54,133 nucleotides of DNA from Dehalococcoidales bacterium (GCA_034432095.1 DAOUCV010000088.1:1-54133), one strand, 5' to 3'; counted from the first letter of the stretch, positions 7,044-36,934 are shown. A program made the numbers and translations. The notes: generated by a model from the sequence alone, not told the origin.

Positions 7044-8248
7044 AGATTCTTTTCGTCCAAGAGACAGATTGGCTCAGACGAAACCCGGCTCAGCAACATC
7101 ACTTGGCGGAGATGTTATCACTGAGAGGGCACGAAATCCGAGTTATTGATTATGAGTTATTATGGAGGACACAGGGTAAAAAAGAACTCTATTCAAGGCG
7201 ACAGGTCTTCCACAATGTGTCTAAGATTCATGACGGTGCCAGAATCACTGTATTCCGGCCCGGCATTGTCAAGATTCTCTGGCTAGAGTATATTTCACTG
7301 GTATTTTCCCATAAGAGGGAGCTCGAACGGCAGATGGATGAATTCAAGCCAGATGCCCTGGTTGCCTGGGGTATATTGAATAGTTGTCTGGCTGTAAAAG
7401 CCGCCAGAAAAAACAATATACCATTCCTCTACTACTGGATAGACGTGTTAGACAGACTTATACCTTCCAAAGCTTTCCGCATCATTGGTAAACTGGTGGA
7501 AAGTAGAACCTTGAGGCAGTCGGATAGGATACTGGTAATCAATGATAAACTTAGAGAATATGTCATCGGACTGGGTGCTCCACCCGGACTGACTCGGGTC
7601 TTAAGAGCAGGCATTGATACCAAGCAATTTAATCCGGATACCCATCATCGCGAAATAAGGAAACAATACGGTCTTGATGAGGACGATATTGTTCTCTTCT
7701 TCATGGGTTGGCTCTACCGTTTCTCAGGCTTAAAGGAGGTTATCTCGCAATTGGCTGCAAGCCAAGACCATAATCTCAAGCTCCTTATCGTTGGCGAAGG
7801 TGATGCTTACGAAGAGCTTCAGCAAATAAGCGGGAAATATAACCTTCAGGGTAGAGTTATCCTTGCCGGTAAGAAGCCTTATCGTGAGATACCCGATTTC
7901 ATTGCCGCCGCTGATTTCTGTCTTCTCCCGGCCTACCCCTCGGAGCCAATTATGCAAGATATCGTGCCGATAAAAATGTACGAATATATGGCGATGAGAA
8001 AACCGGTAATTGCCACCAGACTTCCCGGGATAGTGGAGGAGTTCGGCGGAGATAACGGCGTGGTTTATGTGGATAGACCGGAGGACGTGGTTACAAAAGC
8101 TATTGAGCTGGTACGGAATGGCCGTAGGGAAACGCTCGGGGCAAAAGCCAGGAGCTTTGTGGAACGAAATAGCTGGGATAACATTACCAGCGAATTTGAG
8201 AAAATTCTGGAAGAAGTGATAAAGGAAAAAACAAGATGGACAACCTAA
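7040..8248 (+). CDS. Glycosyltransferase family 4 (GT-B)
   Basis: Start moved to ATG 7040 (ATGA overlap). GIDTKQF, FMGWL, IVGEG, PIKMYEYMAMRKPVIAT, RNSWDNI. Confidence 0.88.
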   Translation: MKILFVQETDWLRRNPAQQHHLAEMLSLRGHEIRVIDYELLWRTQGKKELYSRRQVFHNVSKIHDGARITVFRPGIVKILWLEYISLVFSHKRELERQMDEFKPDALVAWGILNSCLAVKAARKNNIPFLYYWIDVLDRLIPSKAFRIIGKLVESRTLRQSDRILVINDKLREYVIGLGAPPGLTRVLRAGIDTKQFNPDTHHREIRKQYGLDEDDIVLFFMGWLYRFSGLKEVISQLAASQDHNLKLLIVGEGDAYEELQQISGKYNLQGRVILAGKKPYREIPDFIAAADFCLLPAYPSEPIMQDIVPIKMYEYMAMRKPVIATRLPGIVEEFGGDNGVVYVDRPEDVVTKAIELVRNGRRETLGAKARSFVERNSWDNITSEFEKILEEVIKEKTRWTT

Positions 8249-9231
8249 GCGAATATAAAGGCAAAAATATCCTTATCACAGGTGGGGCAGGGTGCATCGG
8301 CAGTAATCTCACCAAAGCCCTACTCAGGGCGGAGGCGGCTAAAATTCTTGTCCTTGATGACCTCTCTGCTGCGGAAAGGTGGAACATCCCCGATGCTCCA
8401 AGTGTGACCTTTATTCAAGGAAGCGTTCTGGATGAAGAAGTTTTAAGAAGGGCATTCTCTCAAAAGCCCGATTTTGTCTTCCACCTGGCGGCTCATTTTG
8501 CTAATCAGAACTCAATAGACCATCCTGAGACTGACCTCCTGGTTAACGGGCTTGGCACCCTGAAAATCCTGCGATACTCCCACCTGACCGGTGTGGGGAA
8601 AGTAGTCTTTGCCTCCTCAGGCTGTTCCGTTTACGGAAGCGAGGCGCCCCTGCCCCTTAAAGAGGATTTTGTCTCCCTTCACCTGGATACCCCGTATCAA
8701 ATCACCAAACTTTTAGGAGAACTCTATGGTAACTTCTTTTACCATTATTACGGCTTGCCGGTGGCTATAGCCCGCTACTTCAATGTATACGGTCCGGGAG
8801 AGGTCCCGGGAAGATACCGTAATGTTATCCCCAACTTCATCTGGTGGGCTCTCCATAAAAGACCGCTACCCATAACGGGCACCGGTGAAGAGACCAGAGA
8901 TTTCACCTTTGTTGACGATATAGTTGATGGCACATTGCTCCTGGGCATTATCCCGCAAGCGGCCGGTGAGGCCTTCAACCTCGCTTCAGGGACAGAAACC
9001 AGGGTGATTGACATAGCCAATTTGATAAACGAGTTGACTGGTAACCACAACGGGGTTGAGTTTGTTGCCAGAAGGGACTGGGACAAAATCACCCGCCGGC
9101 GAGCCTCGATCGAGAAGGCAAAGATGGTTCTGGGCTATGAACCCAGAGTGAAGATGAAAGAAGGCATAAAGAGGGTACTCGACTGGATTGTAGAAAATCG
9201 CGAGAAGATAGAAGCCAGCGCCAGGTTTTAA
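8236..9231 (+). CDS. NAD-dependent nucleotide-sugar epimerase/dehydratase
   Basis: TGGAGCIG, HLAA, ASSGCSVYG, PYQITK, RYFNVYGP, ETRDFTFVDD. Confidence 0.9.
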   Translation: MDNLSEYKGKNILITGGAGCIGSNLTKALLRAEAAKILVLDDLSAAERWNIPDAPSVTFIQGSVLDEEVLRRAFSQKPDFVFHLAAHFANQNSIDHPETDLLVNGLGTLKILRYSHLTGVGKVVFASSGCSVYGSEAPLPLKEDFVSLHLDTPYQITKLLGELYGNFFYHYYGLPVAIARYFNVYGPGEVPGRYRNVIPNFIWWALHKRPLPITGTGEETRDFTFVDDIVDGTLLLGIIPQAAGEAFNLASGTETRVIDIANLINELTGNHNGVEFVARRDWDKITRRRASIEKAKMVLGYEPRVKMKEGIKRVLDWIVENREKIEASARF

Positions 9232-9240
9232 GCTGGAGGT

Positions 9241-10011
9241 ATGATGACCCTGAAAAATGAAATTGAATTCTATAGTAAGGTTGAAGTCTCCGCCAATACC
9301 GGTGAAATTGAGACCTGGGACCGGATAATATTCCCCAATGTTATCCGGAAGCGTGAAATTGAGTTAATTTTGGGTCAAATCTCCCAGGTAAAACCGAAAA
9401 GAATCCTGGACTTTGGCTGTGGGGCAGGATGGCTGAGTAAAATCTTATCCTTGAACGGCTACAGTGTTGTCGGGATTGATGTCGCCCCGTATTTAATCGA
9501 AAAAGCTACCAGGTTGTCCCTTGACAGGGCTCATTTTGTCGTTGGCGATTGTATGAATTTGCCTTTCCGAGAGAAATCTTTTGACTTCATCACAGGAGTT
9601 GCCATACTGCACCATCTGGACATAGACAAAGCCTTGGCTGAGTGCCGGCGGGTTACCGTTGACGGAGCGATGAGCCTGTTTCTGGAACCGAACAGGCTCA
9701 ATCCAATCTCGGCTCTGGGAGAGAAAATAGCACCTCATACAAGGGGAGAAAGACGTATAACCCGGGAGGGACTGAGAAGGTCACTTCTTAAACAGGGGTG
9801 GGCTGTCCGGGAGGTCCGGTGCCTTTTCCCCTATAGCTTCGGTCTAGCCTACCTGCTCGGAAGAACAGGGCTTCAAAACAGCAGCAAATTAGGATTTATT
9901 ACCAAACTGGTAAAGGTTTCAGAAGAGCTCTTGGAGAAAGTGCCCTTGCTGAATCAATTCGGCTCCACCTTGATGGTGGTCGCCAAAAGGATAAACGGTG
10001 GTGAGTCTTAA
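9241..10011 (+). CDS. Class I SAM-dependent methyltransferase
   Basis: ILDFGCGAG, VVGIDVA, GDCMNLPF, SFDFI, ILHHL, EPN. Confidence 0.88.
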   Translation: MMTLKNEIEFYSKVEVSANTGEIETWDRIIFPNVIRKREIELILGQISQVKPKRILDFGCGAGWLSKILSLNGYSVVGIDVAPYLIEKATRLSLDRAHFVVGDCMNLPFREKSFDFITGVAILHHLDIDKALAECRRVTVDGAMSLFLEPNRLNPISALGEKIAPHTRGERRITREGLRRSLLKQGWAVREVRCLFPYSFGLAYLLGRTGLQNSSKLGFITKLVKVSEELLEKVPLLNQFGSTLMVVAKRINGGES

Positions 10012-11446
10012 TATAACCCTGGTCAGCCCCAGAATTAGGGAGTGGAACCCAAACGTATGGGTGCCTCTTGGCATCTCATATGTCGCTGCGGTGTTAGAAC
10101 AAGCGGGACACAATGTCGAGATAATTGACCTGAATCTGGACAGTACAAAAGACCTCCGGAGAAGCATAGAGAATGCCGACATCGTGGGTATAACCGGCAT
10201 GATAACTGAATACCAGCAAGTTTTAAAGCTGGTCGATATGGTTAAACAGGGTAACGGGAGTTCAAGAGTAATTTTGGGAGGTCCTCTGGCAACAACCCTT
10301 CCTCGGGAGCTACTCCAGGCATCAACGGCTGATTTCGTTGTCATTGGTGAGGGTGAAAGAACAGTAGTTCAGCTTGTCTCGGCGATAGAACACGGTGATA
10401 GTTTCTCCAAGATCAATGGAATTGCGTATCGGGATGGTGACCAGATTGTTGTTACCGAGGCGGCGAAGCCCATAGTCAATCTAGACACTATCCCATTTCC
10501 AGCAAGACACCTCTTAGATATGAAGCGATATGCCACAAACCACTTTGCGCGTTTTGGCCTTAAGATTGAAGGGTTCGGCAAAATTAAGAGCACTAACCTG
10601 ATTACCAGCCGGGGATGCCCTTACAGTTGTACCTTTTGCTTTAAGGACATGTGGGGGTATAAATGGAGGGCACGAAGCCCAGCAAATATTATCGAAGAAA
10701 TGGAGCTACTGGGCAGGAGATATGGTATCAATGGTTTCTTCTTTAACGATGATACCTTTGTTCTTGACCGAAGAAGGATTTTTGAATTTTGCGATTTGCT
10801 AAAGAAGAAGGCCCTGGATGTAGTCTGGTATTGTAATGGGCGGGTGAACCTTATGAGCAGGGAACTGCTGAAAGCAATGTATGATGCTGGATGCCGGGGA
10901 ATTGCCTATGGCATAGAATCAGGGAACCAGCAGGTGCTGGACTCAATGAAAAAGAACCAGACCCTTGAGCAGACGAGAAACGTAGTTAAGTGGACGAGAG
11001 AGGTTGGATTTCACGTTGCCGGTTATTTTATGATTGGGATGCTGGGTGAAACCAAGGAGACTATTTGCCAGACCATCGCTTTCGCCAGGGAATTAGACCT
11101 GGATTTTTACGGGTTTTCAATAGTAACTCCGCTGCCTGGCACCGAGCTATATAAAGCTGCCCAAGAGCAAGGATTAATACAACGGGATATGACATCACTC
11201 AAAGAGTGGGGCTTTTATGTCAATGCCAACTTGACTCAGGATTGTACCGACGATGACCTGGTTGCTTTTGAGAATAAGGCGTTCCGGGAGTTTACTCTGG
11301 AGAAGTTTGGCAAATATTATCTCCTCACCCCGGGTTTCGTCAAAGGAGTAGCCGAGGTGCTTCTCTCAATTCGGAGCCGAAATGATGTGAAAGAATTAGC
11401 CAGGAAAGCCGGGGGAATTATCCGCTCTTACTGGCACGGGGCTTGA
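9998..11446 (+). CDS. B12-binding radical SAM protein (class B methylase-like)
   Basis: N-terminal cobalamin-binding region (PLGISYVAAVL, VILGGP, GEGE), SRGCPYSCTFC (CxxxCxxC), DDTF, GIESG, PLPGTELY. GTG start at 9998 or 10001. Confidence 0.9.
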   Translation: MVSLNITLVSPRIREWNPNVWVPLGISYVAAVLEQAGHNVEIIDLNLDSTKDLRRSIENADIVGITGMITEYQQVLKLVDMVKQGNGSSRVILGGPLATTLPRELLQASTADFVVIGEGERTVVQLVSAIEHGDSFSKINGIAYRDGDQIVVTEAAKPIVNLDTIPFPARHLLDMKRYATNHFARFGLKIEGFGKIKSTNLITSRGCPYSCTFCFKDMWGYKWRARSPANIIEEMELLGRRYGINGFFFNDDTFVLDRRRIFEFCDLLKKKALDVVWYCNGRVNLMSRELLKAMYDAGCRGIAYGIESGNQQVLDSMKKNQTLEQTRNVVKWTREVGFHVAGYFMIGMLGETKETICQTIAFARELDLDFYGFSIVTPLPGTELYKAAQEQGLIQRDMTSLKEWGFYVNANLTQDCTDDDLVAFENKAFREFTLEKFGKYYLLTPGFVKGVAEVLLSIRSRNDVKELARKAGGIIRSYWHGA

Positions 11447-11447
11447 G

Positions 11448-12605
11448 ATGAAGATTTTACAGGTGTTCCACATTTTCTCTTTGCCACACGGTGGCGGGAC
11501 TACAGACGTGGTGTATAAGCTCTCGAGGGCTCTATCCCAGAGAGGGCATGAGGTGACGATATATACCAGTGATTTTGAACTGGACCAAGAATATATAGAT
11601 TCTCTACCGGGTGTAGAAGTTTGCCCTTTCCACAGCTGGTTCAACCTATCACAGATTCATTTGACACCGGGCCTGGCCACACGAACAAAGAGAAAGCTCA
11701 AAGATTTTGACATTGTCCACATCCATCAGTTCAGAAGTTTTCAAAATATAGTAATATGGTACTATGCCAGGAAATATGGCATCCCATATATAGTAGATGC
11801 CCATGGTTCCACCCCAAGAACGGGGAAAGCAGGACTTAAGTGGCTGTTCGATGTTATCTTTGGCTACCGGATTCTGAAAGACGCCGGTAGAGTCGTTGCT
11901 GAGACTGAAACGGGAGTCAATGAATATAAAATGTTCGGGGTAGATGCGGATAAAATTGTCCTGATTACTCCTCCTTTTGCCATTGAGGAGTTCTCCCGGC
12001 TACCGCCACGGGGGTTATTCCGGGAGAAATACCATATCAAGGAAAAGCATATAGTTTTGTTTCTCGGTAGAATACACTGGATAAAGGGGCTTGACTTTCT
12101 GGTGGAATCATTCTACGAACTGACCAAGTCTAGAACCGACACTATTTTGGTAATAGTCGGCAATGATGACGGCTATAAGCCCACCCTGGACAGGCTAATC
12201 GGCAGGCTAAATCTGGCAGATAAGGTCTTATTCACCGGATTTCTGGGCGGGGTAGATAAACTATCGGCACTGGTTGATGCCGATGTGCTGGTGCAGACCT
12301 CCATCTACGAGCAAGGCACGGGGGTGCCTTTTGAAGCCATACTATGTAATACACCTATTATCGTCAGCAAGTATACCAGTGCTAGCGAGAATGTGACGAA
12401 AATTGACGCCGGATACCTGGTAGAATACGGTAACAAAAAAGAGCTATGCGATACAATGCAATACGTCCTGGACCATCCGGGTCAAGCCAAGAGCAAAACA
12501 CAAAGAGCAAAAGAATATATCAAGGCAAACCTATCCATAGATAAGGTGGTGGAGAAATACGAACACCTCTATATTGACTGCATTACTGAACGAAGGGTAA
12601 ATTAG
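11448..12605 (+). CDS. Glycosyltransferase family 4
   Basis: HGGG, DIVHIH, FLGRIHWIKG, IVGND, SIYEQGTGVPFEAILCNTPII. Confidence 0.88.
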   Translation: MKILQVFHIFSLPHGGGTTDVVYKLSRALSQRGHEVTIYTSDFELDQEYIDSLPGVEVCPFHSWFNLSQIHLTPGLATRTKRKLKDFDIVHIHQFRSFQNIVIWYYARKYGIPYIVDAHGSTPRTGKAGLKWLFDVIFGYRILKDAGRVVAETETGVNEYKMFGVDADKIVLITPPFAIEEFSRLPPRGLFREKYHIKEKHIVLFLGRIHWIKGLDFLVESFYELTKSRTDTILVIVGNDDGYKPTLDRLIGRLNLADKVLFTGFLGGVDKLSALVDADVLVQTSIYEQGTGVPFEAILCNTPIIVSKYTSASENVTKIDAGYLVEYGNKKELCDTMQYVLDHPGQAKSKTQRAKEYIKANLSIDKVVEKYEHLYIDCITERRVN

Positions 12606-12615
12606 GCAAACCAAT

Positions 12616-13539
12616 ATGAGCATTCTTGTTACTGGTGCTACTGGTTTCATAGGTTCTCATTTATGCCGGGTACTGGTTCAGCGGGGACATCAGGTAGTAG
12701 GGTTATCCCTCTCCGGGAGAACGGATAACATAATACCGCTATTGCACCATAGAGGATTTCACCTTGAGCGGGGTGACATCCGGGACGAAGATATGATGCG
12801 CAGCATAATAAAGAATAACCGGATAAAGACGGTGTTCCATCTGGCAGCCCTTCTGCCCAATGGCAGCAACCTTGACAATGCCTTATTATACTTTGACACT
12901 AATGCCCGGGGAACACTCAATCTACTAAACGCGGCGTACCTGAATGCCGTTGATATGTTTATATACTCGTCTACCATGAGTGTATATGCTGAACCGCCCC
13001 GGTATCTGCCAGTGGATGAGAGCCATCCGGTGCAACCCTCTACAACCTACAGTGTCGCTAAGCTAACGGGTGAGCTTTGCTGTCATCTATACTCCAAGGC
13101 AATGAACATAATTATTCTCCGGTATTCTGGAGCCTACGGGCGTGGTGAACGGGAATCCAATGCGATACCTACATTCATTAACCAGGCACTGAACAACCGG
13201 CCAATTACCATACACGGTGATGGTAATCAAACCAGTGATTTTGTATATATAGATGACGTGGTCCAAGGTACCGTCCTCGCCTGGGAGAAGAACAGACCAG
13301 GGGTCTATAATATTGGTAGCGGGCAAGAAACGAGTATAAGGGAGCTGGCTAAAATTATCATTAATTTGACCAATTCCAAATCGGAAGTGACTCTGACCGG
13401 CAAGAGCAGTGAGCGCCCTTTCAGATTTTTCCTGGATATCACGAAGGCACAAAAAATTCTAGATTATTCACCCCGCCCCATTGACGAGGGATTACCAAAA
13501 TACCTGAAAGAATTCAGTAATGTGAGGTGCGAGAAATGA
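12616..13539 (+). CDS. NAD-dependent nucleotide-sugar epimerase/dehydratase
   Basis: TGATGFIG, HLAA, SSTMSVY, YSVAK, DFVYIDDVV. Confidence 0.88.
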   Translation: MSILVTGATGFIGSHLCRVLVQRGHQVVGLSLSGRTDNIIPLLHHRGFHLERGDIRDEDMMRSIIKNNRIKTVFHLAALLPNGSNLDNALLYFDTNARGTLNLLNAAYLNAVDMFIYSSTMSVYAEPPRYLPVDESHPVQPSTTYSVAKLTGELCCHLYSKAMNIIILRYSGAYGRGERESNAIPTFINQALNNRPITIHGDGNQTSDFVYIDDVVQGTVLAWEKNRPGVYNIGSGQETSIRELAKIIINLTNSKSEVTLTGKSSERPFRFFLDITKAQKILDYSPRPIDEGLPKYLKEFSNVRCEK

Positions 13540-14501
13540 AGATATTAATAACTGGCGGGGCTGGATTTATTGGCAGTCACCTGTGTGACAAATATACCAG
13601 CGAAGGGCATACGGTGCTGTGCCTGGATAATTTCATGAGCGGAAACCTGACCAATGTCAGGCACCTGTTGGACTACCGGAACTTCAAATTGATAAAAGGT
13701 GATGTCAGAGACTTTGCCCTGCTAGAAAAGATTATGCCTGATGTCGATGTCGTCTTTCACCTAGCTGCCCAGGTCCATGTGGATAGGTCTTACATCGAGC
13801 CTCGCCTTACTTATGAGGTGAATGTTATGGGGACACAGAATATCCTGGAAGCAGCCAAGATGTATGACGCCAAGAAGGTTATCTACGCTTCAACAAGCGA
13901 GGTATATGGCTCAGCCCAGTATGTGCCTATAGATGAAAAACACCCATTGAATGCCCCTCACCCCTACGGGGCAAGTAAGATAGCGGCTGACAGAATGTGC
14001 TATGCCTATATTCAGACCTATGGACTGAATATCTCCATAGTCAGGCTTTTCAATATCTTCGGCCCACGACAAAGGGACATCGGCTACGGAGGAGTGATAT
14101 CTATATTTATTAGAAGAATCCTGAGCAATACGCCTCCTATTATCTACGGCGATGGTCAACAAACCAGGGACTATACCTATGTCGAGGACGCTGTTAGGGC
14201 CTATGACTTACTCCTGAACCACAAAGAGCCGATAAATGAACCAGTTAATTTTGGTAGCGGGCGGGAAGAGTCAATCATCGACCTGGCCAATAGGCTCATC
14301 AACCTGTGCGGTAAAAAAGGCGAGATTAAACCAGTGCATGTTGAACCAAGAATTGGAGAGGTTAAGCGGCTTATCGCCGACGCCACCAGGGCTAAAGAGC
14401 TCCTGGGATGGGTGCCTAAATACGATTTGGAGACCGGGCTCCAAGAATTCGTGCAATGGTACAGGAACTATGGTTTCGAGGAAAGAATCAAGATAGAATG
14501 A
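13536..14501 (+). CDS. NAD-dependent nucleotide-sugar epimerase/dehydratase
   Basis: Start ATG 13536 (ATGA overlap, RBS GAGGTG). TGGAGFIG, ASTSEVYG, PYGASK, RLFNIFGP, TRDYTYVED. Confidence 0.9.
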   Translation: MKILITGGAGFIGSHLCDKYTSEGHTVLCLDNFMSGNLTNVRHLLDYRNFKLIKGDVRDFALLEKIMPDVDVVFHLAAQVHVDRSYIEPRLTYEVNVMGTQNILEAAKMYDAKKVIYASTSEVYGSAQYVPIDEKHPLNAPHPYGASKIAADRMCYAYIQTYGLNISIVRLFNIFGPRQRDIGYGGVISIFIRRILSNTPPIIYGDGQQTRDYTYVEDAVRAYDLLLNHKEPINEPVNFGSGREESIIDLANRLINLCGKKGEIKPVHVEPRIGEVKRLIADATRAKELLGWVPKYDLETGLQEFVQWYRNYGFEERIKIE

Positions 14502-15511
14502 CACAGCAACCAAATCCAGTTACTCCAGAAGCAGCAATAGATATTCCCACGCCTACCCTGCAGGCATTGTATGTCACGATGCTACGAATCCGCAGGTGCG
14601 AGGAGAAAATAGCTGAATGCCTCCAGCCTAAGCCGGAGATAGTGTGTCCCGTTCACCTCTACATCGGGCAGGAGGCGGTAGCGGCTGGTGTCTGTGCCAA
14701 CCTAAGGAAGGACGATTACGTTTTCAGTACCCACCGTAGCCACGGGCACTATATTGCCAAGGGCGGTGACATAAAGGCTCTGGTAGCTGAGCTGTACGGG
14801 AAAGCGAGGGGATGTTCCCGGGGCAGGGGTGGTTCTATGCATCTGACATCACCCGAAGTGGGGCTGCTCGGTAGTTCAGCTATTGTTGGCGGGACCATCC
14901 CTTTAGCGGTAGGAGTTGCTTTAGCCATGTCCCTAAGAGGACGGGACAGCGTCTCGGTTGCCTTCTTTGGTGATGGTGCTACTCATGAAGGCGTGTTTTA
15001 TGAATCCCTTAACTTCGCCTCACTCAAGAAACTACCGGTCGTGTTTATCTGCGAAAACAACCTCTACTCTACTCATATGCCAATTTCCGCCTGCCTTGCC
15101 GACACCAATATTTACCAGAAGGCCAAGACCTTTGCCATGCCCGGCATCAGAATTGACGGGAACAACGTATTTGAAGTTTTTGGGGCTGCTAAGAAGGCAA
15201 TTGCAGATGCCCGCTGTGGGCAGGGCCCCACGTTAATCGAGTGTCTGACCTACAGATGGCGAGGACACGTCGGTCCAAGCGATGATTTAGACAAGGGGCT
15301 TAGGTCTAAAAAAGAGCTGGACTACTGGATGGATAGATGCCCGGTCAAGCTACTGGAGGAGTTCCTGTTAAAGCACAGGATTCTATCCGAGCCAGAAAAA
15401 ATCCGAATATATAATGAAATCGATAAAGAGATAGAAGAGGCTATCCGTTTTGCCAGAGAAAGCCCCTACCCTGACAAAAATAGTCTTTTAGATTATGTAT
15501 TTAAGGTTTGA
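14498..15511 (+). CDS. ThDP-dependent dehydrogenase E1 alpha-like subunit
   Basis: Start ATG 14498 (ATGA overlap). HLYIGQEA, HRSHGH, GGSMH, ThDP motif GDGA...ESLN, CENN, YRWRGH. Confidence 0.88.
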   Translation: MTQQPNPVTPEAAIDIPTPTLQALYVTMLRIRRCEEKIAECLQPKPEIVCPVHLYIGQEAVAAGVCANLRKDDYVFSTHRSHGHYIAKGGDIKALVAELYGKARGCSRGRGGSMHLTSPEVGLLGSSAIVGGTIPLAVGVALAMSLRGRDSVSVAFFGDGATHEGVFYESLNFASLKKLPVVFICENNLYSTHMPISACLADTNIYQKAKTFAMPGIRIDGNNVFEVFGAAKKAIADARCGQGPTLIECLTYRWRGHVGPSDDLDKGLRSKKELDYWMDRCPVKLLEEFLLKHRILSEPEKIRIYNEIDKEIEEAIRFARESPYPDKNSLLDYVFKV

Positions 15512-15522
15512 CAAGGTAGAAA

Positions 15523-16497
15523 ATGCGCCGGATATCTTACGCCCAGGCAATCAATGAAACCCTGCACCAGTTGATAGAAAGTGATGAGCGTGTGTTTCTC
15601 ATTGGGCAGGGGGTCACCAGCCCCTGGTATGTGGGTACGACTACCGTCGGGCTTATTGACCGCTTCGGTCCGAAACGCATAATTGATACCCCGGTATCGG
15701 AAAATGGTATTACTGGCGTCGCTGTAGGGGCAGCCTTAGCTGGAATGCGCCCAATCTTAGTGCACCCCAGAATGGACTTTATGTATTATGCGTTGGACCA
15801 GATAGCCAACCACGCCGCTAACTGGCACTATATGCTCGGCGGGCAATTAAGCGTGCCCCTGACCATCTGGGCAATTATTAATCGGGGAGGAGAGCAAGCT
15901 GCTCAGCACTCCCAGGCTTTACAGGCAATCTTTACTCACATTCCGGGACTAAAGGTAGTAATGCCCAGCACGCCGTATGATGCTAAAGGGCTCCTCACTG
16001 CCAGCATCGCCGATGATAACCCGGTAGTCTATATTGATGACCGCTGGCTGTACCAGCATGCAGGTGAGGTACCTGAAGAACTGTACTCGGTCCCAATTGG
16101 GAAGGGAGTAGTAAGAAGAGAAGGAAAAGATGCCACGATAGTGGCAACTTCATATATGGTAACAGAAGCGATCAAGGCGGCGGTGGATTTGGAGAAAGAT
16201 GGAATAGATGTAGAGGTAATCGACCTCCGTTCCCTCAAACCTCTTGATGAAGCTCTCCTGGTGGAATCGGTAAAAAAGACGGGCAAACTCGTTATCGCTG
16301 ATGCTGGCTGGAGAACTTGTGGTGTAGGAGCTGAGCTTGCGGCTCTGGTTGTTGAAAAAGCCTTTGAGTACCTGAAAACGCCGATTACGCGTGTTTCCTT
16401 GCCCGATTCTCCCGCTCCAGCCAGCTCGGCTCTGGAGGAAGTATATTATCCTAAAGCCAGAGATATAATCTCGGCAGTGAAGGAACTGGCAGAGTGA
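15523..16497 (+). CDS. ThDP-dependent dehydrogenase E1 beta-like subunit
   Basis: DTPVSENG, QHSQ, GLKVVMPS, VEVIDLRSLKPLD, KKTGKLVI. Confidence 0.9.
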   Translation: MRRISYAQAINETLHQLIESDERVFLIGQGVTSPWYVGTTTVGLIDRFGPKRIIDTPVSENGITGVAVGAALAGMRPILVHPRMDFMYYALDQIANHAANWHYMLGGQLSVPLTIWAIINRGGEQAAQHSQALQAIFTHIPGLKVVMPSTPYDAKGLLTASIADDNPVVYIDDRWLYQHAGEVPEELYSVPIGKGVVRREGKDATIVATSYMVTEAIKAAVDLEKDGIDVEVIDLRSLKPLDEALLVESVKKTGKLVIADAGWRTCGVGAELAALVVEKAFEYLKTPITRVSLPDSPAPASSALEEVYYPKARDIISAVKELAE

Positions 16498-16503
16498 AAA
16501 GAT

Positions 16504-17613
16504 ATGAAGTATCGAGTCCCCTTCGTTGATTACCCCACACATTACCGTCGTATCCGGAAGGAAATTGACGCTGCCATCAAGGCAGTGCTAAATGGTGGAG
16601 ATTTTATTCTGCGCCAGCAGTTAAGAGACTTTGAAAGCCACATTGCTGACTATGTCGGAGTGGATTATGCTGTGGGCGTTAACAGCGGAACCGACGCTCT
16701 GCACTTGTCCCTGTTAGCCGCCGGCATAGGACCCGGGGATGAAGTTATCACGGTGGCTCATACCTTTGTCGCTTCCGTAGCCGTAATTAAGCACTGCGGA
16801 GCCACTCCGATACTGGTGGATGTGGGCAAAGATTTCAATATGGATATGGAACAGGTGGAACCAGCTATCACCCCAAAAACAAAAGCCATTATGCCTGTCC
16901 ATCTGAATGGCCGCCCTTGTGATATGGCCAGACTGATGACCATTGCCCGTAGGTATAACCTACTGATAATTGAGGATGCTGCCCAAGCCCTGGGGGCGGC
17001 TTTTGAGGGCAAGAAGGCTGGTTCCTTTGGTCTGGCCGGTTGTTTTAGCTTCTACCCGGCCAAGATTCTGGGCGGCTTTGGCGATGGCGGCATAGTCGTC
17101 ACCAATAACCAGGAGGTAGCCAAAAAGGTTCGCTTGCTCCGCGACCACGGGCAGGATAGGGAGACCGGGGACATTCTCGGCTATGGTTTTAACAGCCGCT
17201 TAGACAACCTGCAAGCCGCTATTCTCGATGTAAAACTCAAACACCTGCCTGATTGGATTAAAAGGAGGCGCAAGCTGGCTAACCTCTATGAGCGAGGCTT
17301 ATCCGGTCTATCTCAGGTAAAGACGCCTCCGCCACCACAGGAAGGCCGTTATTTTGACGTCTTTACCAACTATGTAATAAGGGCTGAAAAACGAGATGAG
17401 CTGGTTAACTATCTAAGGGAATCAGGCATTGAGATTCTGATTTCCTGGCCCAAATCGATGCACCATCACCCGGCATTAGGGCTGAGGCATTTCAGCCTTC
17501 CCGAAACCGAGAAAATATCACAAGAGGTGCTCTCCCTGCCCCTTTTCCCGGAGCTAGGCGAGGATAAAGTGGAGTTTGTAATAGAGTCTATTCGCAATTT
17601 CTATAAGCGATAG
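16504..17613 (+). CDS. DegT/DnrJ/EryC1/StrS PLP sugar aminotransferase
   Basis: NSGTDAL, GDEVIT, IEDAAQA, FSFYPAK (PLP Lys), GDGG, NSRLD, LSLPLFP. Confidence 0.92.
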   Translation: MKYRVPFVDYPTHYRRIRKEIDAAIKAVLNGGDFILRQQLRDFESHIADYVGVDYAVGVNSGTDALHLSLLAAGIGPGDEVITVAHTFVASVAVIKHCGATPILVDVGKDFNMDMEQVEPAITPKTKAIMPVHLNGRPCDMARLMTIARRYNLLIIEDAAQALGAAFEGKKAGSFGLAGCFSFYPAKILGGFGDGGIVVTNNQEVAKKVRLLRDHGQDRETGDILGYGFNSRLDNLQAAILDVKLKHLPDWIKRRRKLANLYERGLSGLSQVKTPPPPQEGRYFDVFTNYVIRAEKRDELVNYLRESGIEILISWPKSMHHHPALGLRHFSLPETEKISQEVLSLPLFPELGEDKVEFVIESIRNFYKR

Positions 17614-17636
17614 GGGTTTCTTACGAGGGTGGCAGA

Positions 17637-18371
17637 ATGAAACAACGACTAGCGCATCTCTTCATGCACTGGCCCGCTTTCTACTATTTCATAGCTAGGG
17701 TTTACTCTTTTGCTGGGTCTTTAATCGGGATGAGAGTAGCAGAGAAATGGTGGGCAGCTAGAAGCTCATTTGCTAAGAGCTACTGGGGTAGTCGGAGTCT
17801 CTCTAGCAGAGGCTTTCTAGTAGAAAGGATAGCTGCCTTTTCGCCTATTGACAGTATTCTTGAAGTGGGGTGTGCCAGCGGACCAAATCTGTATGTACTA
17901 GCAAAGAAATTCCCTAAAGCACAGATTGTAGGCATCGATATTAACAGAGAAGCTATAGAGTATGGTAAGGCACAGTTTGCACAGGAAGGGATTGCGAATG
18001 TTAGGCTGTTTGTTAGCAAAGCAGACGAGCTAGGAAAATTTCAAGACAAGGCTTTTGACGTTGTATTTACTGATGCCGTTCTCACGCATATTAGCCCAAA
18101 CAAAATCAAGAAAGTTATAAGTGAGATGCTTCGTATTACTCGACGAGCATTAATTCTAATGGAGCCACACTCCTTTGAGCTTAATGAGAAAGACCTACTC
18201 AAACTTGGAATCCTCACATACTATGGTGGCCAGTGGATAAGAAGCTATACGGCTTTACTAAAGCAATTCGTTCCAGAAGAGCAAATAAGGGTTACTAGAA
18301 TTCCAGAGGATGTCTGGCCCGAAAAACCCTGGAAAGAACTAGGTGCTGTTATTGAAGTAGTTGTCTCGTAA
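17637..18371 (+). CDS. Class I SAM-dependent methyltransferase
   Basis: ILEVGCASG, VGIDIN, FDVVFTDAVL; more AT-rich and CTAG-rich than its neighbours. Confidence 0.85.
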   Translation: MKQRLAHLFMHWPAFYYFIARVYSFAGSLIGMRVAEKWWAARSSFAKSYWGSRSLSSRGFLVERIAAFSPIDSILEVGCASGPNLYVLAKKFPKAQIVGIDINREAIEYGKAQFAQEGIANVRLFVSKADELGKFQDKAFDVVFTDAVLTHISPNKIKKVISEMLRITRRALILMEPHSFELNEKDLLKLGILTYYGGQWIRSYTALLKQFVPEEQIRVTRIPEDVWPEKPWKELGAVIEVVVS

Positions 18372-18419
18372 TTTGTACAGTAGAGACCGAATTAATAGCA
18401 GGGTTTGAGAGGTCTTTGG

Positions 18420-19739
18420 ATGAAGCGGGTTTTGATTATAGTGCACTTGCCTCGGGCATCACCCCGCATCGCCGGTTTAGTCAACCATCTTGCTGAATTT
18501 GGCTGGGAGTCGACTATTTTGACTGGGGCCACCAGTCAATACAAAGATTTGCCGGCAAGAATAGTGGAGACGCCTTACCGAGATGCCTTGGGATTGTTAG
18601 GACGTTTACTTAGAGTTAACCCGGCAGAAGATGCAAGACGGCAATTCTATCACCGCCTGGGCATAGTTTCTAAGAAGTCCCCGCTTGATTTTTTCTTTAG
18701 CCTGGGAGGAGAGGTTGTGAACTACCCCTGCCCTGACAAAAACTGGAAGCCATTCGCTCTCCAGGCAGGCAACAAGCTTTTGCAAGAGGAAAATATAGAT
18801 GCTATTGTCTCTAGTTCTCCCCCGGTAACCAGCCACATTGTTGCCAGAGAACTGAAGGCGAAATACAAGACTCCGTGGCTGGCTGATTTTCGCGACCTAT
18901 GGTTGCAGAATGCTAACTATGCCTACGGGGCCTTGAGAAGGTTGCTTGACAGGAGACTGGAACTAAAAACACTATCGAGCGCTGATGCGCTGGTGACTGT
19001 CTCTGAACCCTTGGCCGAGAAACTACGCGCCTTACACAAAGGAAAACCGGTTTACGCAATTACCCATGGCTTCGACCCGGCTGAGGTGAATGTTCCGCCG
19101 GCTAAGCTGACGGCCAAGTTCACCATTACCTATGCCGGTCTGCTTTATTCCAGGAGACAAGACCCAACAAGACTTTTCGCGGCTCTACGAGAGCTTACCC
19201 TCAATAGGACTCTGAATCCGGAAGAGATTGAAGTCAATTTTTATGGTCCCGAAGAGGGATGGCTACACCAGGAAATCGGACGATATGCCTTGTCAGGCAT
19301 CGTAAAACAGAATGGTATAGTACCCCATCAGGTTGCGCTGCAAAAGGAAAGGGAGTCACAGGTACTGCTTCTTTTGGACTGGGATGACCCGCAGGAAAAG
19401 GGGGTCTATACCGGGAAGATTTTTGAATATCTCGGGGCGAGGAGACCTATATTAGCTACCGGAGGGACAAAAGGGGACGTCGTCGACCAACTGTTAAAGG
19501 AAACCGGAGCTGGAGTACACGCTCCAACTGTTGAAGATGTAAAGATTGCCCTCAAAGAGTTGTACCGGGAATATAAGTTGAAAGGTGAGGTAACCTACCG
19601 GGGGAAAGAATCGGAGATTAATAAATACAGCCACCGGGAAATGGCTCGGAAGTTCGCCGATATTCTTGACCACTTGGCCACAAATAATCCACCTCAAATT
19701 CATTCGGTCGGTTTTGACAAGCACACTTCAAGCCAGTAA
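18420..19739 (+). CDS. Glycosyltransferase family 4-like
   Basis: Start moved to ATG 18420. SSSPPVTSH, WLADFRDLW, ITHGFD, TGKIFEYLGARRPILA. Confidence 0.85.
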   Translation: MKRVLIIVHLPRASPRIAGLVNHLAEFGWESTILTGATSQYKDLPARIVETPYRDALGLLGRLLRVNPAEDARRQFYHRLGIVSKKSPLDFFFSLGGEVVNYPCPDKNWKPFALQAGNKLLQEENIDAIVSSSPPVTSHIVARELKAKYKTPWLADFRDLWLQNANYAYGALRRLLDRRLELKTLSSADALVTVSEPLAEKLRALHKGKPVYAITHGFDPAEVNVPPAKLTAKFTITYAGLLYSRRQDPTRLFAALRELTLNRTLNPEEIEVNFYGPEEGWLHQEIGRYALSGIVKQNGIVPHQVALQKERESQVLLLLDWDDPQEKGVYTGKIFEYLGARRPILATGGTKGDVVDQLLKETGAGVHAPTVEDVKIALKELYREYKLKGEVTYRGKESEINKYSHREMARKFADILDHLATNNPPQIHSVGFDKHTSSQ

Positions 19740-19779
19740 GATAGTTGCTAAAAAGAGAGTAAGCAGGGTATTTCCTCAT

Positions 19780-21348
19780 ATGAGTAAGAGTATAGCGGTT
19801 ATCGGCTGTGGGTACTGGGGGAAGAACCTGGTGCGTAACTTTGCCGAGCTTGGCGCTTTGCATACTGTTTGTGATGCTGACCCTGGAGTACTGGAGAGAC
19901 TGAGGTCATCCTATCCCTGGTTAAGTACCGAGACAGAGTTCCGCAGGGTACTGAAGGACGGTTCCATAAGAGGTGTAGTTGTCTCGACCCCGGCAGCACT
20001 CCACTATTCCATGGCTAAGGAAGCATTGCTTGCAGGCAAGGACGTGTTTGTCGAAAAGCCGCTGGCGCTAAGAGTGGAAGAAGGGAAAGAACTGGTCGAA
20101 CTGGCTGAGGCAAAGCAATGCATACTGATGGTAGGGCACGTCCTCGAGTACCATCCGGCTGTAGTAAGACTGAAGGAATTGATAGATAAGGGTGAGCTGG
20201 GCAAAGTCCAGTATATCTACTCTAACCGGCTGAACCTGGGCAAATTCCGTACTGAAGAGAATATCCTCTGGAGTTTTGCCCCGCACGATATCTCGGTTAT
20301 TCTGCTGTTTCTTGGTGGTGAGATGCCCCGGGAGGTTTCCGCCCACGGCGGTTATTACCTCCATCAGGATATTGCTGATACTACCCTGACCACCCTCGCT
20401 TTTAGCCACGGGGTGAGAGCGCATATCTTTGTTAGCTGGCTTCATCCCTTTAAGGAACAAAGACTGATTGTGGTCGGTAACAAAGCCATGGCCGAGTTCA
20501 ACGATACCAATCCGCAAGAGAAGCTCTTACTATTTAGACACCAAATAGAGTGGATTGAGCAGAAGCCGGTGCCTGCCCCCAGAGAAGCGGAAGTGGTTGA
20601 TGTCTCTCTTGAAGAGCCGTTGAAGATAGAATGCCAGGACTTTCTTCACTCCGTTGAGAACCGGCAAAAGCCCAAGGTAGATGGGTATAAAGGACTTCAG
20701 GTACTAGAAATTCTATCCTGCTGTCAGCAGTCGCTCGAGGCAAAGGGTAAGATTATTGCCCTGGTCCAAGAACAGAGGGATTTCTTCATTCATGAAACCA
20801 GCATCGTGGAAGAGCCCTATGAAATTGGTGAGGGGACAAAGATATGGCACTTTTCCCACCTCATGCCCGGTGTAACCCTAGGCAAAAACTGTGTCGTTGG
20901 GCAGAATGTTTTTATCGGGAGAGGAGTGAAAATCGGTAATAACGCAAAGTTAGAAAATAATGTCTCAGTCTTTGAGGGGGTAACGCTTGAAGATGACGTT
21001 TTCTGTGGTCCGTCCTGTGTCTTCACCAATGTCATAAACCCCCGGAGTCATATTTCACGGAAGAATGAGTTCAAGCCTACTCTGGTCAGGAAAGGTGCTA
21101 CTATTGGTGCCAACGCTACCATCATCTGTGGTAACACTATTGGTCGGTATGCCTTTGTTGGTGCCGGAGCCGTAGTTACCCGAGATGTCCCCGATTATGC
21201 CCTAGTGTATGGCAATCCAGCCCAACTCCAGGGCTGGGTCTGTGAGTGTGGAGAGAGGCTTGAATTCGGTGAAGGCAAAGAAGCAGAGTGTGCCCGTTGT
21301 GGCAAGACTTTTCAGAGAAAGGGCAAGAAAACCGTCACTATTAAGTAG
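19780..21348 (+). CDS. Gfo/Idh/MocA oxidoreductase fused to hexapeptide N-acetyltransferase (WbpB-WbpD-like)
   Basis: Start moved to ATG 19780. IGCGYWG, EKP, GHVLEYHP, APHD; then WHFSH, GQNV, left-handed beta-helix repeats, FTNVINPRS, GNPA and terminal CECG...CARCG. Confidence 0.9.
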   Translation: MSKSIAVIGCGYWGKNLVRNFAELGALHTVCDADPGVLERLRSSYPWLSTETEFRRVLKDGSIRGVVVSTPAALHYSMAKEALLAGKDVFVEKPLALRVEEGKELVELAEAKQCILMVGHVLEYHPAVVRLKELIDKGELGKVQYIYSNRLNLGKFRTEENILWSFAPHDISVILLFLGGEMPREVSAHGGYYLHQDIADTTLTTLAFSHGVRAHIFVSWLHPFKEQRLIVVGNKAMAEFNDTNPQEKLLLFRHQIEWIEQKPVPAPREAEVVDVSLEEPLKIECQDFLHSVENRQKPKVDGYKGLQVLEILSCCQQSLEAKGKIIALVQEQRDFFIHETSIVEEPYEIGEGTKIWHFSHLMPGVTLGKNCVVGQNVFIGRGVKIGNNAKLENNVSVFEGVTLEDDVFCGPSCVFTNVINPRSHISRKNEFKPTLVRKGATIGANATIICGNTIGRYAFVGAGAVVTRDVPDYALVYGNPAQLQGWVCECGERLEFGEGKEAECARCGKTFQRKGKKTVTIK

Positions 21349-21354
21349 GAGAAA

Positions 21355-22479
21355 ATGAACACGCCACTGGTTGACCTAAAGGCACAATATGACTCAATAA
21401 AAGAAGAGGTTAATGAAGCCATTCAAAGGGTTCTTGATAGCGGACAATTCATCCTTGGCTCTGAGGTGAGGGCTTTTGAAGAAGAAATGGCTGCCTACTT
21501 GGGGGTAAAATATGCCGTAGGGGTTGCCTCAGGCACGGATGCTTTGCACCTGGCTCTGCTCGCCTGTGGAATTGGACCGGGTGACGAGGTAATTACCACT
21601 CCCTTCACCTTCATTGCTACCGCTGAAGCGATAACGCATTGCGGTGCTACCCCTGTCTTTGTTGACATAGACCCAAGAACCTACAACATTGACCCCAAGA
21701 TGATTGAACCAAGAATCAACAGGAAGACAAAAGCCCTTCTGCCAGTTCACCTGTACGGTCAGCCAGCGGATATGGAGGCTGTCTTGGCGTTAGCCAGAAA
21801 ACACAACCTCAGACTCATAGAAGACTGTGCTCAAGCCGTCGGGGCAGAGTATAAAGGCAAAAAAGTCGGCTCTTTTGGGAATGCCGGTTGTCTCAGCTTT
21901 TTCCCGAGTAAGAGTCTCGGTGCTTATGGAGATGGGGGAATGGTAGTAACCGATAGCCCTGAAATTGCTGAGAAAGTAGAGATGCTCCGCCGACATGGCT
22001 CTAAGGTCAGCTACTATCACCTGCTACCCGGGTTTAACAGTCGCCTTGATGCCCTGCAAGCGGCGGTCTTGAGAGTCAAACTAAGATACCTTGATGATTG
22101 GGTCAGGCTCCGTCAGCAGAAAGCCTCACTCTATACGCAACAATTAAGCCAGATAAAAGGAATTATGCCCCCGCCTCAGGAGAAGCACAGCCTGTCAACT
22201 TTTACTTATTATACCATCCGCTTGCGGGATTCCCGGATTGATAGAGGTAGATTACGCAAGCACCTGGAAGCAAAGGGTATCCAGACGATGATTTATTACC
22301 CATTGTCCCTTCATCTTCAGGATGTGTATAAATCTTTAGGGTACAGGTCTGGCGACCTTCCCGAAAGCGAGCGTGCTCAGGAGCAGGTCCTCTCCCTGCC
22401 GATATACCCCGAACTTATGGAAGAGCAAATAAAAGAAGTGGTAAATACAATAACCGAGTTTGCAGGTCAGTCATACTAG
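21355..22479 (+). CDS. DegT-family aminotransferase (WbpE-like)
   Basis: ASGTDAL, TPFTFIATAE, VHLYGQ, IEDCAQA, SFFPSK, GDGG, NSRLD, LSLPIYP; follows the WbpB-WbpD fusion. Confidence 0.9.
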   Translation: MNTPLVDLKAQYDSIKEEVNEAIQRVLDSGQFILGSEVRAFEEEMAAYLGVKYAVGVASGTDALHLALLACGIGPGDEVITTPFTFIATAEAITHCGATPVFVDIDPRTYNIDPKMIEPRINRKTKALLPVHLYGQPADMEAVLALARKHNLRLIEDCAQAVGAEYKGKKVGSFGNAGCLSFFPSKSLGAYGDGGMVVTDSPEIAEKVEMLRRHGSKVSYYHLLPGFNSRLDALQAAVLRVKLRYLDDWVRLRQQKASLYTQQLSQIKGIMPPPQEKHSLSTFTYYTIRLRDSRIDRGRLRKHLEAKGIQTMIYYPLSLHLQDVYKSLGYRSGDLPESERAQEQVLSLPIYPELMEEQIKEVVNTITEFAGQSY

Positions 22480-22520: not shown

Positions 22521-23456
22521 CTATCGTCTTTCTAGGAACAGGTTCACGATTTTTTCCTTCTCCTGGCATAATTTCATTAGTTCATCGATATCATTGATTT
22601 TAAGAACCCGGTTCTCCAGCGAGCGCAGTTCATCTATGGCGGTTACCGCAAACCCGTAGTCGTTCACCAATTTAGAGACGAACTCGCGTGGTGAAAACCC
22701 CATTTCCTCAATGGCTGAGGGATAGAATTCAATAAACATCTTCAAACCGGGGTTGTTTCTAATAATTCTATCCATGCCCAAAACTACCGCCATCTCCGAA
22801 CCTTCGCAGTCCATCTTGATGACATCAATCGGGTGCCCTTTGTCCTTGAAAAACTCGTCCAGGGTCACCGCTTCAACCTCAACAAAATCTCCTGATTGTT
22901 TGGTGTCAAACTGCCAGTGGTCGTGCTTCTCCCGCAAGGTATGCGCTCCAATATCAGTATGGGAGAGATACAGCTTGACTGTCCCTGACACATTGAAGAC
23001 AGCTTTTTGGACAGGGACAACATTGTCATACCCATTCAAAGACAGGTTTTTCAGAAGAACTTCGTAGTTATGTGGTTCTGGCTCGAAGGCATAAACCGTT
23101 CCCGTGGGGCCCACCAGCCTGGCGGCGAGCAAGGTGAAATAGCCAATGTTGGCACCGATATCAACTACGGTCTGCCCCTCTTTAACTGCCTGCCTAAACA
23201 GCGAGGTGGTGAGTTTCTCTTTCCCATGCGACCGAATAAAACCTCGAAAAGCAGCGCGCATCGGACCCTTGACCCGAGGGTTTAAATACATCTTGCTACC
23301 TTCAATATGCACAATGCTTTTTGTCGGCCATAGCCAGAGAAGCTCGGTAAAGAAGCGGTAGAGCGCCTTGACACCTGGAATCCGATTTGCGCCTACTTTT
23401 ATGAAAACTCTAGAAGTCTTATCAAAAGCGGAAAGCAAGGATGACCTTGCTGTCAT
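22521..23456 (-). CDS. FkbM family methyltransferase
   Basis: VVDIGANIGYF, VYAFEP, VTLD, IKMDCEGSE. Confidence 0.9.
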   Translation of the reverse strand: MTARSSLLSAFDKTSRVFIKVGANRIPGVKALYRFFTELLWLWPTKSIVHIEGSKMYLNPRVKGPMRAAFRGFIRSHGKEKLTTSLFRQAVKEGQTVVDIGANIGYFTLLAARLVGPTGTVYAFEPEPHNYEVLLKNLSLNGYDNVVPVQKAVFNVSGTVKLYLSHTDIGAHTLREKHDHWQFDTKQSGDFVEVEAVTLDEFFKDKGHPIDVIKMDCEGSEMAVVLGMDRIIRNNPGLKMFIEFYPSAIEEMGFSPREFVSKLVNDYGFAVTAIDELRSLENRVLKINDIDELMKLCQEKEKIVNLFLERR

Positions 23457-36903: not shown

Positions 36904-36934
36904 AATCACCCAGCCTGAGTTTGAGTACGCTCCG

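Follow-up and report, generated by a model that had tools for sequence, protein, structure and literature searches.

A thiamine diphosphate-dependent E1 pair with no E2 or E3 gene nearby in a Dehalococcoidales glycan cluster probably serves a branched amino-sugar module

The 54,133-nucleotide stretch of DNA from a Dehalococcoidales bacterium analyzed here (GCA_034432095.1 DAOUCV010000088.1:1-54133; hereafter the window) carries, within a glycan gene cluster, a five-gene module composed of two short-chain dehydrogenases/reductases (SDR1 and SDR2), the alpha and beta subunits of a thiamine diphosphate (ThDP)-dependent E1-like enzyme and a DegT/DnrJ/EryC1 aminotransferase (DegT1). Judging from the sequences, we propose that this module probably makes an undescribed branched amino sugar: SDR2 would supply a nucleoside diphosphate (NDP)-4-keto sugar, the E1 pair would install an acetyl branch, DegT1 would aminate it, and the amine would then be methylated or acetylated. 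We place the probability of this overall reading at roughly 0.55, and lean by a similarly narrow measure towards the E1 pair being a free-standing α2β2 ThDP carboligase and not the E1 of a complex. A first-pass annotation of the window had regarded the pair as a probable C-branched sugar module, and this view is supported by a sister clade that includes the trioxacarcin subunit TxnB3 (95% bootstrap), the score of E1alpha below the relevant cut-offs, the absence of nearby E2 and E3 genes, a Lys or Arg at the E2-docking position and an upstream SDR of the 4-keto-forming type.

The matches of the E1 pair to PF00676, PF02779 and PF02780 are all well above the Pfam gathering scores, and the catalytic machinery is preserved. 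E1alpha has an intact ThDP motif, GDG-X26-NN (GDGATHEG...ICENN), together with the catalytic His (RGH), while E1beta keeps both the ThDP-activating Glu (TPVSENG) and the catalytic His (AAQHSQ); these residues align with their counterparts in the human and G. stearothermophilus E1 enzymes. On the strength of domains and motifs, the pair belongs to the heterotetrameric ThDP-dependent E1 superfamily. At the level of individual functions, E1alpha falls below both NCBIfam equivalog cut-offs for pyruvate dehydrogenase (PDH), scoring 337.8 vs. 393.85 for TIGR03182 and 232.4 vs. 411.35 for TIGR03181, and E1beta exceeds NF006667 (347.8 vs. 321), which is a subfamily-level model only. Enzymes of the YerE type are acetolactate-synthase-type single chains with N-terminal, central and C-terminal thiamine pyrophosphate (TPP)-enzyme domains. 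The pair differs from them in consisting of an E1_dh domain subunit and a separate beta subunit, and comparison with the TPP-enzyme domains returned only a marginal PF02775 stretch (21.3 bits vs. a cut-off of 21.9 bits).

Set against this conserved core are clade-specific changes that line the active-site entrance in both subunits. In E1alpha, the loop corresponding to human Ser264/Ser266, which reads GH-S-x-S in complex-bound E1s, is replaced by GH-V-G-P with a two-residue insertion, and alpha Met200 has become Thr, Ile, Val or Cys across the clade; in E1beta, GQGVTSPWYVG stands in place of GEDVGxYGGAF. A further change affects the surface by which E1 meets E2. E1beta Lys285 aligns with human D289 (D319 in precursor numbering) and with G. 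stearothermophilus E285, the acidic E2-docking residue. Human D319 forms a salt bridge to the subunit-binding domain of E2, its replacement by Asn raises the E1–E2 dissociation constant more than 100-fold, and D319N is the way in which an E1 of the crucian carp was freed from its complex (PMC5554223). The position is Lys or Arg in every module-type E1beta compared (11/11) and also in two related loci, L029 (Solidesulfovibrio magneticus) and L030 (Streptomyces); among E1betas linked to an E2 it is Asp or Glu in five of the six, with Gln in the remaining one (L020).

The first-pass annotation had reported no lipoyl or E3 gene beside the pair, and tblastn bore this out. Five E2, two E3 and one lipoate-protein ligase queries, all taken from genuine complexes, gave no match at E ≤ 1e-3 in the 54-kb window or in 14 sugar-type loci; for the host, the search covers the window and not the rest of the genome. 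As positive controls, five loci with E1 pairs of 39–43% identity (L020, L022, L031, L032 and L033) have an E2 gene following the pair, often an E3 gene, and in one case a lipoate ligase.

Phylogeny gave a consistent picture. In a neighbor-joining tree of E1alpha, the window clade and a second clade from sugar clusters form a group with 95% bootstrap support that excludes all E2-linked E1alpha sequences and human PDHA1; the outcome named beforehand as damaging, a grouping with E2-linked, PDH-type E1s, was not seen. The second clade (97%) comprises TxnB3, proteins of S. rochei and Micromonospora, and sequences from Solidesulfovibrio magneticus pDMC1, an Azospirillum oryzae plasmid and a Streptomyces albogriseolus plasmid locus that also encodes an EryCIII-type glycosyltransferase, a P450 and a DrrA-type ABC transporter. 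In the E1beta tree, the corresponding group is recovered with lower support (62%), and 97% is reached with Solidesulfovibrio alone. Because the window clade is sister to the TxnB3 clade and not nested in it, its membership in the C-branching group holds at the level of the superfamily clade only. The comparison with PDH, acetoin dehydrogenase and avilamycin enzymes that had been suggested was thereby achieved in part: the separation from E2-linked E1s and human PDHA1 is direct, with AviB1/B2 represented by TxnB3 and AcoA/B by E2-linked operons (200–300 bootstraps, limited taxon sampling).

The gene arrangement recurs far beyond this bacterium. E1alpha–E1beta–DegT behind a dehydratase-type SDR was found in 11 contigs, independent of one another and spread over at least six lineages of phylum rank, always inside glycan clusters, and the recurrence is not due to chance. 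The loci come from Dehalococcoidia/Chloroflexota (L001, L014 and L024), Bathyarchaeia (L004), Thaumarchaeota/Nitrososphaeria (L005 and L006), ANME-1 (L018), Nitrospira (L009), an unclassified bacterium (L008) and two metagenome contigs (L002 and L003). Their core consists of a 4-keto-forming SDR, E1alpha, E1beta and DegT, usually with a methyltransferase and a gene for a glycosyltransferase family 4 (GT4)-like protein. The order in relatives is [GT4]–SDR–E1alpha–E1beta–DegT, mostly followed by the methyltransferase (a GNAT in L001) and the GT4-like gene. The clade is abundant among uncultured Dehalococcoidia, Nitrospira and several archaeal phyla. A protein search with E1alpha gave at least 8000 matches, the best 120 of which are 69–77% identical, so that among the matches listed more than 100 homologues reach at least 69% identity. 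As an observation on a single copy, the ANME-1 GoMg2 locus (L018, 7950–10900) has E1alpha split into two open reading frames (ORFs; 7950–8444 and 8509–8985), and about 1.9 kb with two unrelated ORFs lies between them and E1beta; this is either a decaying module copy or an assembly error.

Within the window, the module is embedded in an array of 16 co-directional genes (5045–22479) with gaps of at most 33 nt. The coupling of E1alpha to an epimerase/dehydratase gene (SDR2) by ATGA, as first described, was confirmed (ATG 14498–14500, TGA 14499–14501), as were the positions of E1beta and DegT1 behind it on the same + strand. A second ATGA overlap joins the SDR1 stop to the SDR2 start (13536–13539), and the other intergenic gaps around the five genes measure 11, 6 and 23 nt. 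With homologues of 335–338 aa, the mechanical ORF call for E1alpha, which begins at 14456, is too long at its 5' end. A scan for promoters and terminators returned weak intragenic matches only and was uninformative.

SDR2 combines STSEVYG, a Thr-Ser-Glu motif, with YxxxK. Thr-Ser-Glu is typically found in 4,6-dehydratases of the GDP-mannose and LegB types and in UDP-glucuronic acid decarboxylases; for motif comparison, the hUXS1 sequence was aligned with SDR2. The best NCBIfam matches of SDR2 are LegB (257.6 bits) and RmlB (231 bits), both under the cut-off, and its PDB neighbors are UXS1, Pal and RmlB. Homologues 70–83% identical to SDR2 occur in L001, L004, L005, L006, L014 and L018. Across the loci, the slot 5' of E1alpha is taken by three unrelated SDR subfamilies, all with STSE(V/I)(Y/F)G and YxxxK: the SDR2 type, a 334-aa type (L002 and L003; 30% identical to SDR2) and a LegB-like 4,6-dehydratase (L024 and L009). 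The LegB-like SDR of L024 scores 469 bits vs. a cut-off of 475 and has a sugar-1-phosphate nucleotidyltransferase gene just 5' of it. That three SDR subfamilies converge on a 4-keto product argues that a keto sugar is what the E1 pair needs, and SDR2 is its presumed supplier. SDR1 carries STMSVYA, with no Glu after the Ser/Thr, was found only in the window and in L014, and is an accessory gene.

DegT1 retains its catalytic Lys (Lys187 in SFYPAKIL), which rules out a pyridoxamine 5'-phosphate-dependent dehydrase of the ColD or E1 type. Its nearest solved structures are the sugar 3-aminotransferases DesV, QdtB and WbpE. Orthologues 53–73% identical to it always lie 3' of E1beta; DegT1 diverges in step with E1 (from 73 to 53%), as expected for a co-inherited functional unit. 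A methyltransferase from one of two families follows DegT1 in nearly every locus, the GNAT of L001 taking its place there; in the window it is presumed to perform a tailoring step on the new amine or on a hydroxyl. The GT4-like protein encoded next has homologues of 45–66% identity in L002–L006 and L008 and may be the enzyme that transfers the modified sugar, and the GT4 gene upstream precedes the module in most related loci, with a homologue at the same position in L001, L002, L008 and L014.

A pathway can be outlined from these observations. SDR2, as its motifs and operon position suggest, would oxidize and dehydrate (or decarboxylate) a nucleotide sugar to an NDP-4-keto sugar; precursors derived from UDP-N-acetylglucosamine (UDP-GlcNAc) dominate the glycan cluster. 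The E1 pair would then decarboxylate pyruvate to hydroxyethylidene-ThDP, the enamine of which would attack the C-4 carbonyl to give an NDP-4-C-acetyl sugar with a tertiary alcohol, a step we propose because of homology to TxnB3/B4, KstD7/D8, AviB1/B2 and Pau11/12. Since the acetyl group would be the only carbonyl left after this step, DegT1, as the gene that invariably comes next, would most simply act there; the transamination of the acetyl C-1' to a 4-C-(1-aminoethyl) sugar is our own suggestion, and to our knowledge there is no precedent for an aminotransferase acting on a ThDP-installed acetyl branch. The methyltransferase (or the GNAT in one relative) may tailor the amine or a hydroxyl. 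From gene context, the GT4-like protein would place the sugar in a lipid-linked glycan, which a flippase and the archaeal-type oligosaccharyltransferase AglB could export and attach to protein.

A number of points weigh against this scheme and have to be kept in mind. The His residues that serve reductive acylation of lipoamide are still present in the E1 pair. Identity between the window E1alpha and TxnB3 is only about 45%, barely over the 39–43% seen with E2-linked E1s, and the neighbor-joining trees, with their limited sampling, were built without characterized AcoA/B, AviB1/B2 or Pau11/12. SDR2 could be an epimerase or a decarboxylase and not a 4,6-dehydratase, and the nearest solved relatives of DegT1 place the amino group at C-3 and not on a side-chain ketone. 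Heptose-type genes (SIS isomerase, kinase and nucleotidyltransferase) are present in the loci of Azospirillum and Solidesulfovibrio, which hints at a different acceptor there. Finally, the window clade is known from sequence alone, and the actinomycete PDH-like heterodimers with which it is compared rest on knockouts, their biochemical validation still lying ahead (PMC10338323).

The most conventional explanation would be an ordinary pyruvate or acetoin dehydrogenase E1 that lies in a glycan operon by chance and finds its E2 and E3 partners elsewhere. The intact catalytic residues and the NF006667 score of E1beta fit it, and several databases label homologues 'acetoin:DCPIP oxidoreductase' or 'PDH E1', the 'acetoin' labels being automatic annotations. 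Yet in both bacteria and archaea the pair remains syntenic with sugar genes, E2 and E3 occur in none of the module loci, E1alpha misses its equivalog cut-off, the clade stands apart from every E2-linked E1 sampled, and the charge at the E2-docking residue is reversed. The context typical of acetoin dehydrogenase, with E2 and E3 adjacent as AcoC/AcoL, was likewise absent at the E1 pair, a comparison that did not include characterized AcoA/B. A housekeeping PDH or Aco E1 was rejected on phylogeny, gene context, equivalog score and docking residue, and we consider this explanation scarcely credible. Loss of E2 docking is also compatible with a plain pyruvate decarboxylase, since an E1 without E2 docking can act as one in crucian carp (PMC5554223). 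DegT1 would in that case first make a 4-amino sugar, with the E1 pair either acting merely as such a decarboxylase or delivering an acetaldehyde or acetyl equivalent for N-acetylation or N-alkylation; a dedicated N-acyltransferase beside DegT1 is indeed missing in most module loci. We find this very unlikely: direct acylation of an amine by a ThDP enzyme is not known, the acceptor required to oxidize hydroxyethyl-ThDP to acetyl-ThDP is not encoded here, L001 keeps its E1 pair despite a GNAT right after DegT1, and the phylogenetic affinity is with C-branching enzymes.

Carboligation could also take place at another carbon. If the E1 pair extended the chain at a sugar aldehyde, such as C-6 in a hexose or C-7 in a heptose, it would yield CH(OH)-CO-CH3, which DegT1 would convert to CH(OH)-CH(NH2)-CH3, giving a higher-carbon omega-deoxy amino sugar. 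The pairing of E1 with an aminotransferase is compatible with either chemistry, and heptose-type precursors are suggested by the SIS isomerase and PfkB kinase that accompany SDR–E1alpha–E1beta–DegT–DegT in L028 (Azospirillum) and by the kinase and nucleotidyltransferase of L029. In the window clade, however, every SDR encoded 5' of E1alpha belongs to the 4-keto-forming Thr-Ser-Glu type, in one case just short of the LegB equivalog, none of these SDRs is a C-6 oxidase, and the branch is at C-4 in every precedent for this type of enzyme; we therefore regard chain extension as improbable. Branching at C-4 followed by amination is the reading we retain. A wider version of it, tentative and on balance rather unlikely, would make the module a mobile cassette. 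Its product, an octose or heptose with an amino-bearing branch, would be a deoxy sugar with a 4-C-(1-aminoethyl) group, N-methylated or N-acetylated; wall-less Dehalococcoidia would display it on AglB-dependent N-glycans of their proteins, and Bathyarchaeia, Nitrososphaeria and ANME-1 on their surface glycans, the cassette having crossed repeatedly between bacteria and archaea. If this is correct, C2-branched sugars would be new to N-glycans, and DegT1 would be the first aminotransferase to act on a branch installed by a ThDP enzyme.

Table 1. Positions of the module genes and of other features in the window
Feature	Position	Strand	Profile match or remark
Archaeal-type oligosaccharyltransferase AglB/STT3	2490–4847	−	WWDYG; TIGR04154, 598 bits vs. 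cut-off 450
B12-binding radical S-adenosylmethionine (SAM) enzyme	9998–11446	+	
GT4 glycosyltransferase	11448–12605	+	PF00534/PF13439; directly 5' of module
SDR1	12616–13539	+	PF01370; extended SDR, epimerase/reductase type
SDR2	13536–14501	+	PF16363/PF01370; NAD-dependent extended SDR
E1alpha-like ThDP subunit (337 aa)	14498–15511	+	PF00676, 239.4 bits
E1beta-like subunit (324 aa)	15523–16497	+	PF02779, 112.4 bits; PF02780, 136.4 bits
DegT1 (DegT/DnrJ/EryC1), pyridoxal 5'-phosphate-dependent sugar aminotransferase	16504–17613	+	PF01041, 371 bits
Class I SAM methyltransferase	17637–18371	+	3' of DegT1
GT4-like protein	18405–19739	+	PF13579/PF13439; N-terminal GT4 domains only
GFO/IDH/MocA 3-dehydrogenase–hexapeptide N-acetyltransferase fusion	19666–21348	+	WbpB-WbpD-like
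Second DegT	21355–22479	+	49% identical to DegT1
Stand-alone second FkbM methyltransferase	22521–23456		
Wzx-type flippase–FkbM methyltransferase fusion (800 aa)	28848–31250	−	Polysacc_synt; FkbM domain C-terminal
ORF, 304 aa	32452–33366	−	no Pfam match
ORF, 195 aa	34293–34880	−	no Pfam match
GspE/F-like genes	35696–38580		
trp operon	40543–47215		
FtsA and FtsZ	48198–50538	−	equivalogs TIGR01174, 391 bits; TIGR00065, 407 bits

Two of the related sugar-type E1 pairs come from cultured proteobacteria, namely Azospirillum oryzae KACC 14407 (L028, 2756–15111; plasmid NZ_CP054615, 205657–222622) and Solidesulfovibrio magneticus RS-1 (L029, 3160–16053; pDMC1), and these are tractable systems for genetics. 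Both have DegT gene(s), SDR genes, a radical SAM enzyme, a NUDIX protein and a kinase as neighbors, to which L028 adds the SIS isomerase and L029 the nucleotidyltransferase and a PMT-like glycosyltransferase. The E1beta proteins of L028 (8965–10047) and of the Streptomyces locus L030 (11002–12040) bear a C-terminal extension of 25–35 residues ending in F(R/I)GP(F/Y), which is missing from the window clade and from complex-bound E1beta. A further clade (96%) of E2-less E1alpha/beta pairs was found in Planctomycetota/Verrucomicrobiota-type metagenome-assembled genomes (MAGs; L012, L013, L015, L016 and L026), next to melibiase-like, GFO/IDH/MocA, amidohydrolase or class-III aminotransferase genes; its E1beta keeps Asp at the E2-docking position.

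The host of the window is bacterial. An archaeal origin was ruled out by the FtsA and FtsZ equivalogs and by the nearest relatives, the closest named ones of both E1alpha and AglB, among the matches listed, being Chloroflexota/Dehalococcoidia MAGs. An AglB homologue (P0147) also shares a 123,096-bp contig with the L001 module, and about one-tenth of the close AglB homologues carry an N-terminal DnaJ domain (PF00226). The presence of AglB and ftsA/ftsZ on one contig points to archaeal-style N-glycosylation in a bacterial lineage. The label 'N-glycan' that the first-pass annotation had given to the product has as its sole basis the archaeal-type AglB gene about 8 kb upstream of the module; it is a reasonable reading, but for a bacterium.

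The cluster also encodes WecB, a TviB/TviC-like UDP-GlcNAc dehydrogenase and epimerase, several GT4s, methyltransferases and the B12-binding radical SAM enzyme, and it is a typical factory for a lipid-linked glycan. The radical SAM gene is part of the operon, has homologues in L001, L002 and L008 (33–68% identity) and may serve C-methylation or another radical tailoring of a sugar. Downstream of the module, the WbpB-WbpD-like fusion, the true start of which is probably a Met at about 19780 and not the TTG at 19666, is followed by the second DegT; together they look like a separate route to a 2,3-diacetamido-2,3-dideoxy sugar. An FkbM-family methyltransferase occurs twice, once fused to the flippase and once alone, and the two ORFs that match no Pfam family separate the glycan cluster from the GspE/GspF-like genes.

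The window documents machinery for archaeal-type N-glycosylation in a bacterium. Should the proposed chemistry be true, it would imply that the envelopes of environmentally dominant microbes carry branched amino sugars of a new class, it would provide signatures for annotating E2-free carboligase E1s (Lys/Arg at the E1beta docking site together with a GH-V/A/C-G-P/C loop in E1alpha), and it would offer soluble, non-actinomycete enzymes for chemo-enzymatic C–C bond formation on nucleotide sugars. Our literature search on E1 pairs in O-antigen or N-glycan clusters found nothing relevant, and no paper describing such a sister clade in surface-glycan operons was found. A possible link to the N-glycan of Nitrososphaera viennensis was dropped, as that glycan consists of di-N-acetylated hexose derivatives with no branched sugar reported, and lends no support.

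Among known systems, the heterotetrameric E1s of pyruvate, acetoin and branched-chain 2-oxoacid dehydrogenases share with the window pair the fold, the ThDP motif, the catalytic Glu and His and 36–43% identity; the window pair differs in lacking E2 and E3, in the Lys at the docking Asp/Glu, in the remodeled active-site loops of both subunits and in its separate clade. The Carassius (crucian carp) E1alpha3/E1beta2 pyruvate decarboxylase was freed by a change at the same E1beta residue (D319N vs. Lys), but it is a eukaryotic paralogue that releases acetaldehyde, with no sugar context and no carboligation. YerE, from the yersiniose A pathway of Yersinia pseudotuberculosis, is the only biochemically characterized case cited, an acetolactate-synthase-type ThDP flavoprotein (PMC4802897, PMC10338323). 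It resembles our proposal in that a nucleotide sugar of a cell-surface polysaccharide pathway receives a pyruvate-derived C2 unit at its C-4 keto group, and differs in being a single chain where the window has an alpha/beta pair.

The closest parallels are the PDH-like heterodimers of actinomycetes, which, in the general paradigm, act on a 4-keto sugar made by a 4,6-dehydratase, or by a UXS-type decarboxylase in the case of eurekanate (PMC10338323, PMC4802897, PMC4753412). TxnB3 is the "pyruvate dehydrogenase-like" subunit of the trioxacarcin pathway of Streptomyces bottropensis, with TxnB4 as its partner, and knockout of txnB4 abolishes trioxacarcin A and leaves analogues without the C2-branched octose (PMC5659172). 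A role in C2 branching has also been proposed for KstD7/D8, AviB1/B2, Pau11/12 (= Plm8/9) and EvdU5/EvdS3 (PMC4802897, PMC4753412, PMC10338323). AviB1/B2 (avilamycin), EvdU5/EvdS3 (everninomicin) and Pau11/12 (paulomycin) are likened to the window pair by their proposed chemistry, the addition of a pyruvate-derived C2 unit to an SDR-made NDP-4-keto sugar, and not by sequence; there, the branch is later reduced (Pau7) or kept as a ketone, not aminated. As SDR2 is equally close to UXS-type decarboxylases and to dehydratases, a eurekanate-like pentose route is possible in the window as well. TxnB3/TxnB4 and KstD7/KstD8 (kosinostatin) resemble the window pair in being two-component PDH-E1-like pairs that lie without E2/E3 beside a 4,6-dehydratase in a deoxysugar gene set, and TxnB3 also has a loop of the GH-V-G-P type and C-P where complex-bound E1s have D-P. 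They differ in their actinomycete host, in the dTDP-2,6-dideoxy sugar of a secondary metabolite as product and in having no aminotransferase or methyltransferase coupled to the pair, and the product keeps its acetyl ketone. Enzymes of this type are already known from a handful of antibiotic pathways in actinomycetes, and there only through knockouts; new are a distinct sister clade, which uncultured Dehalococcoidia, Nitrospira and three archaeal lineages carry in operons for cell-surface glycans, the obligatory coupling of the E1 pair to an aminotransferase and a methyltransferase, and the association with an archaeal-type AglB in a bacterium.

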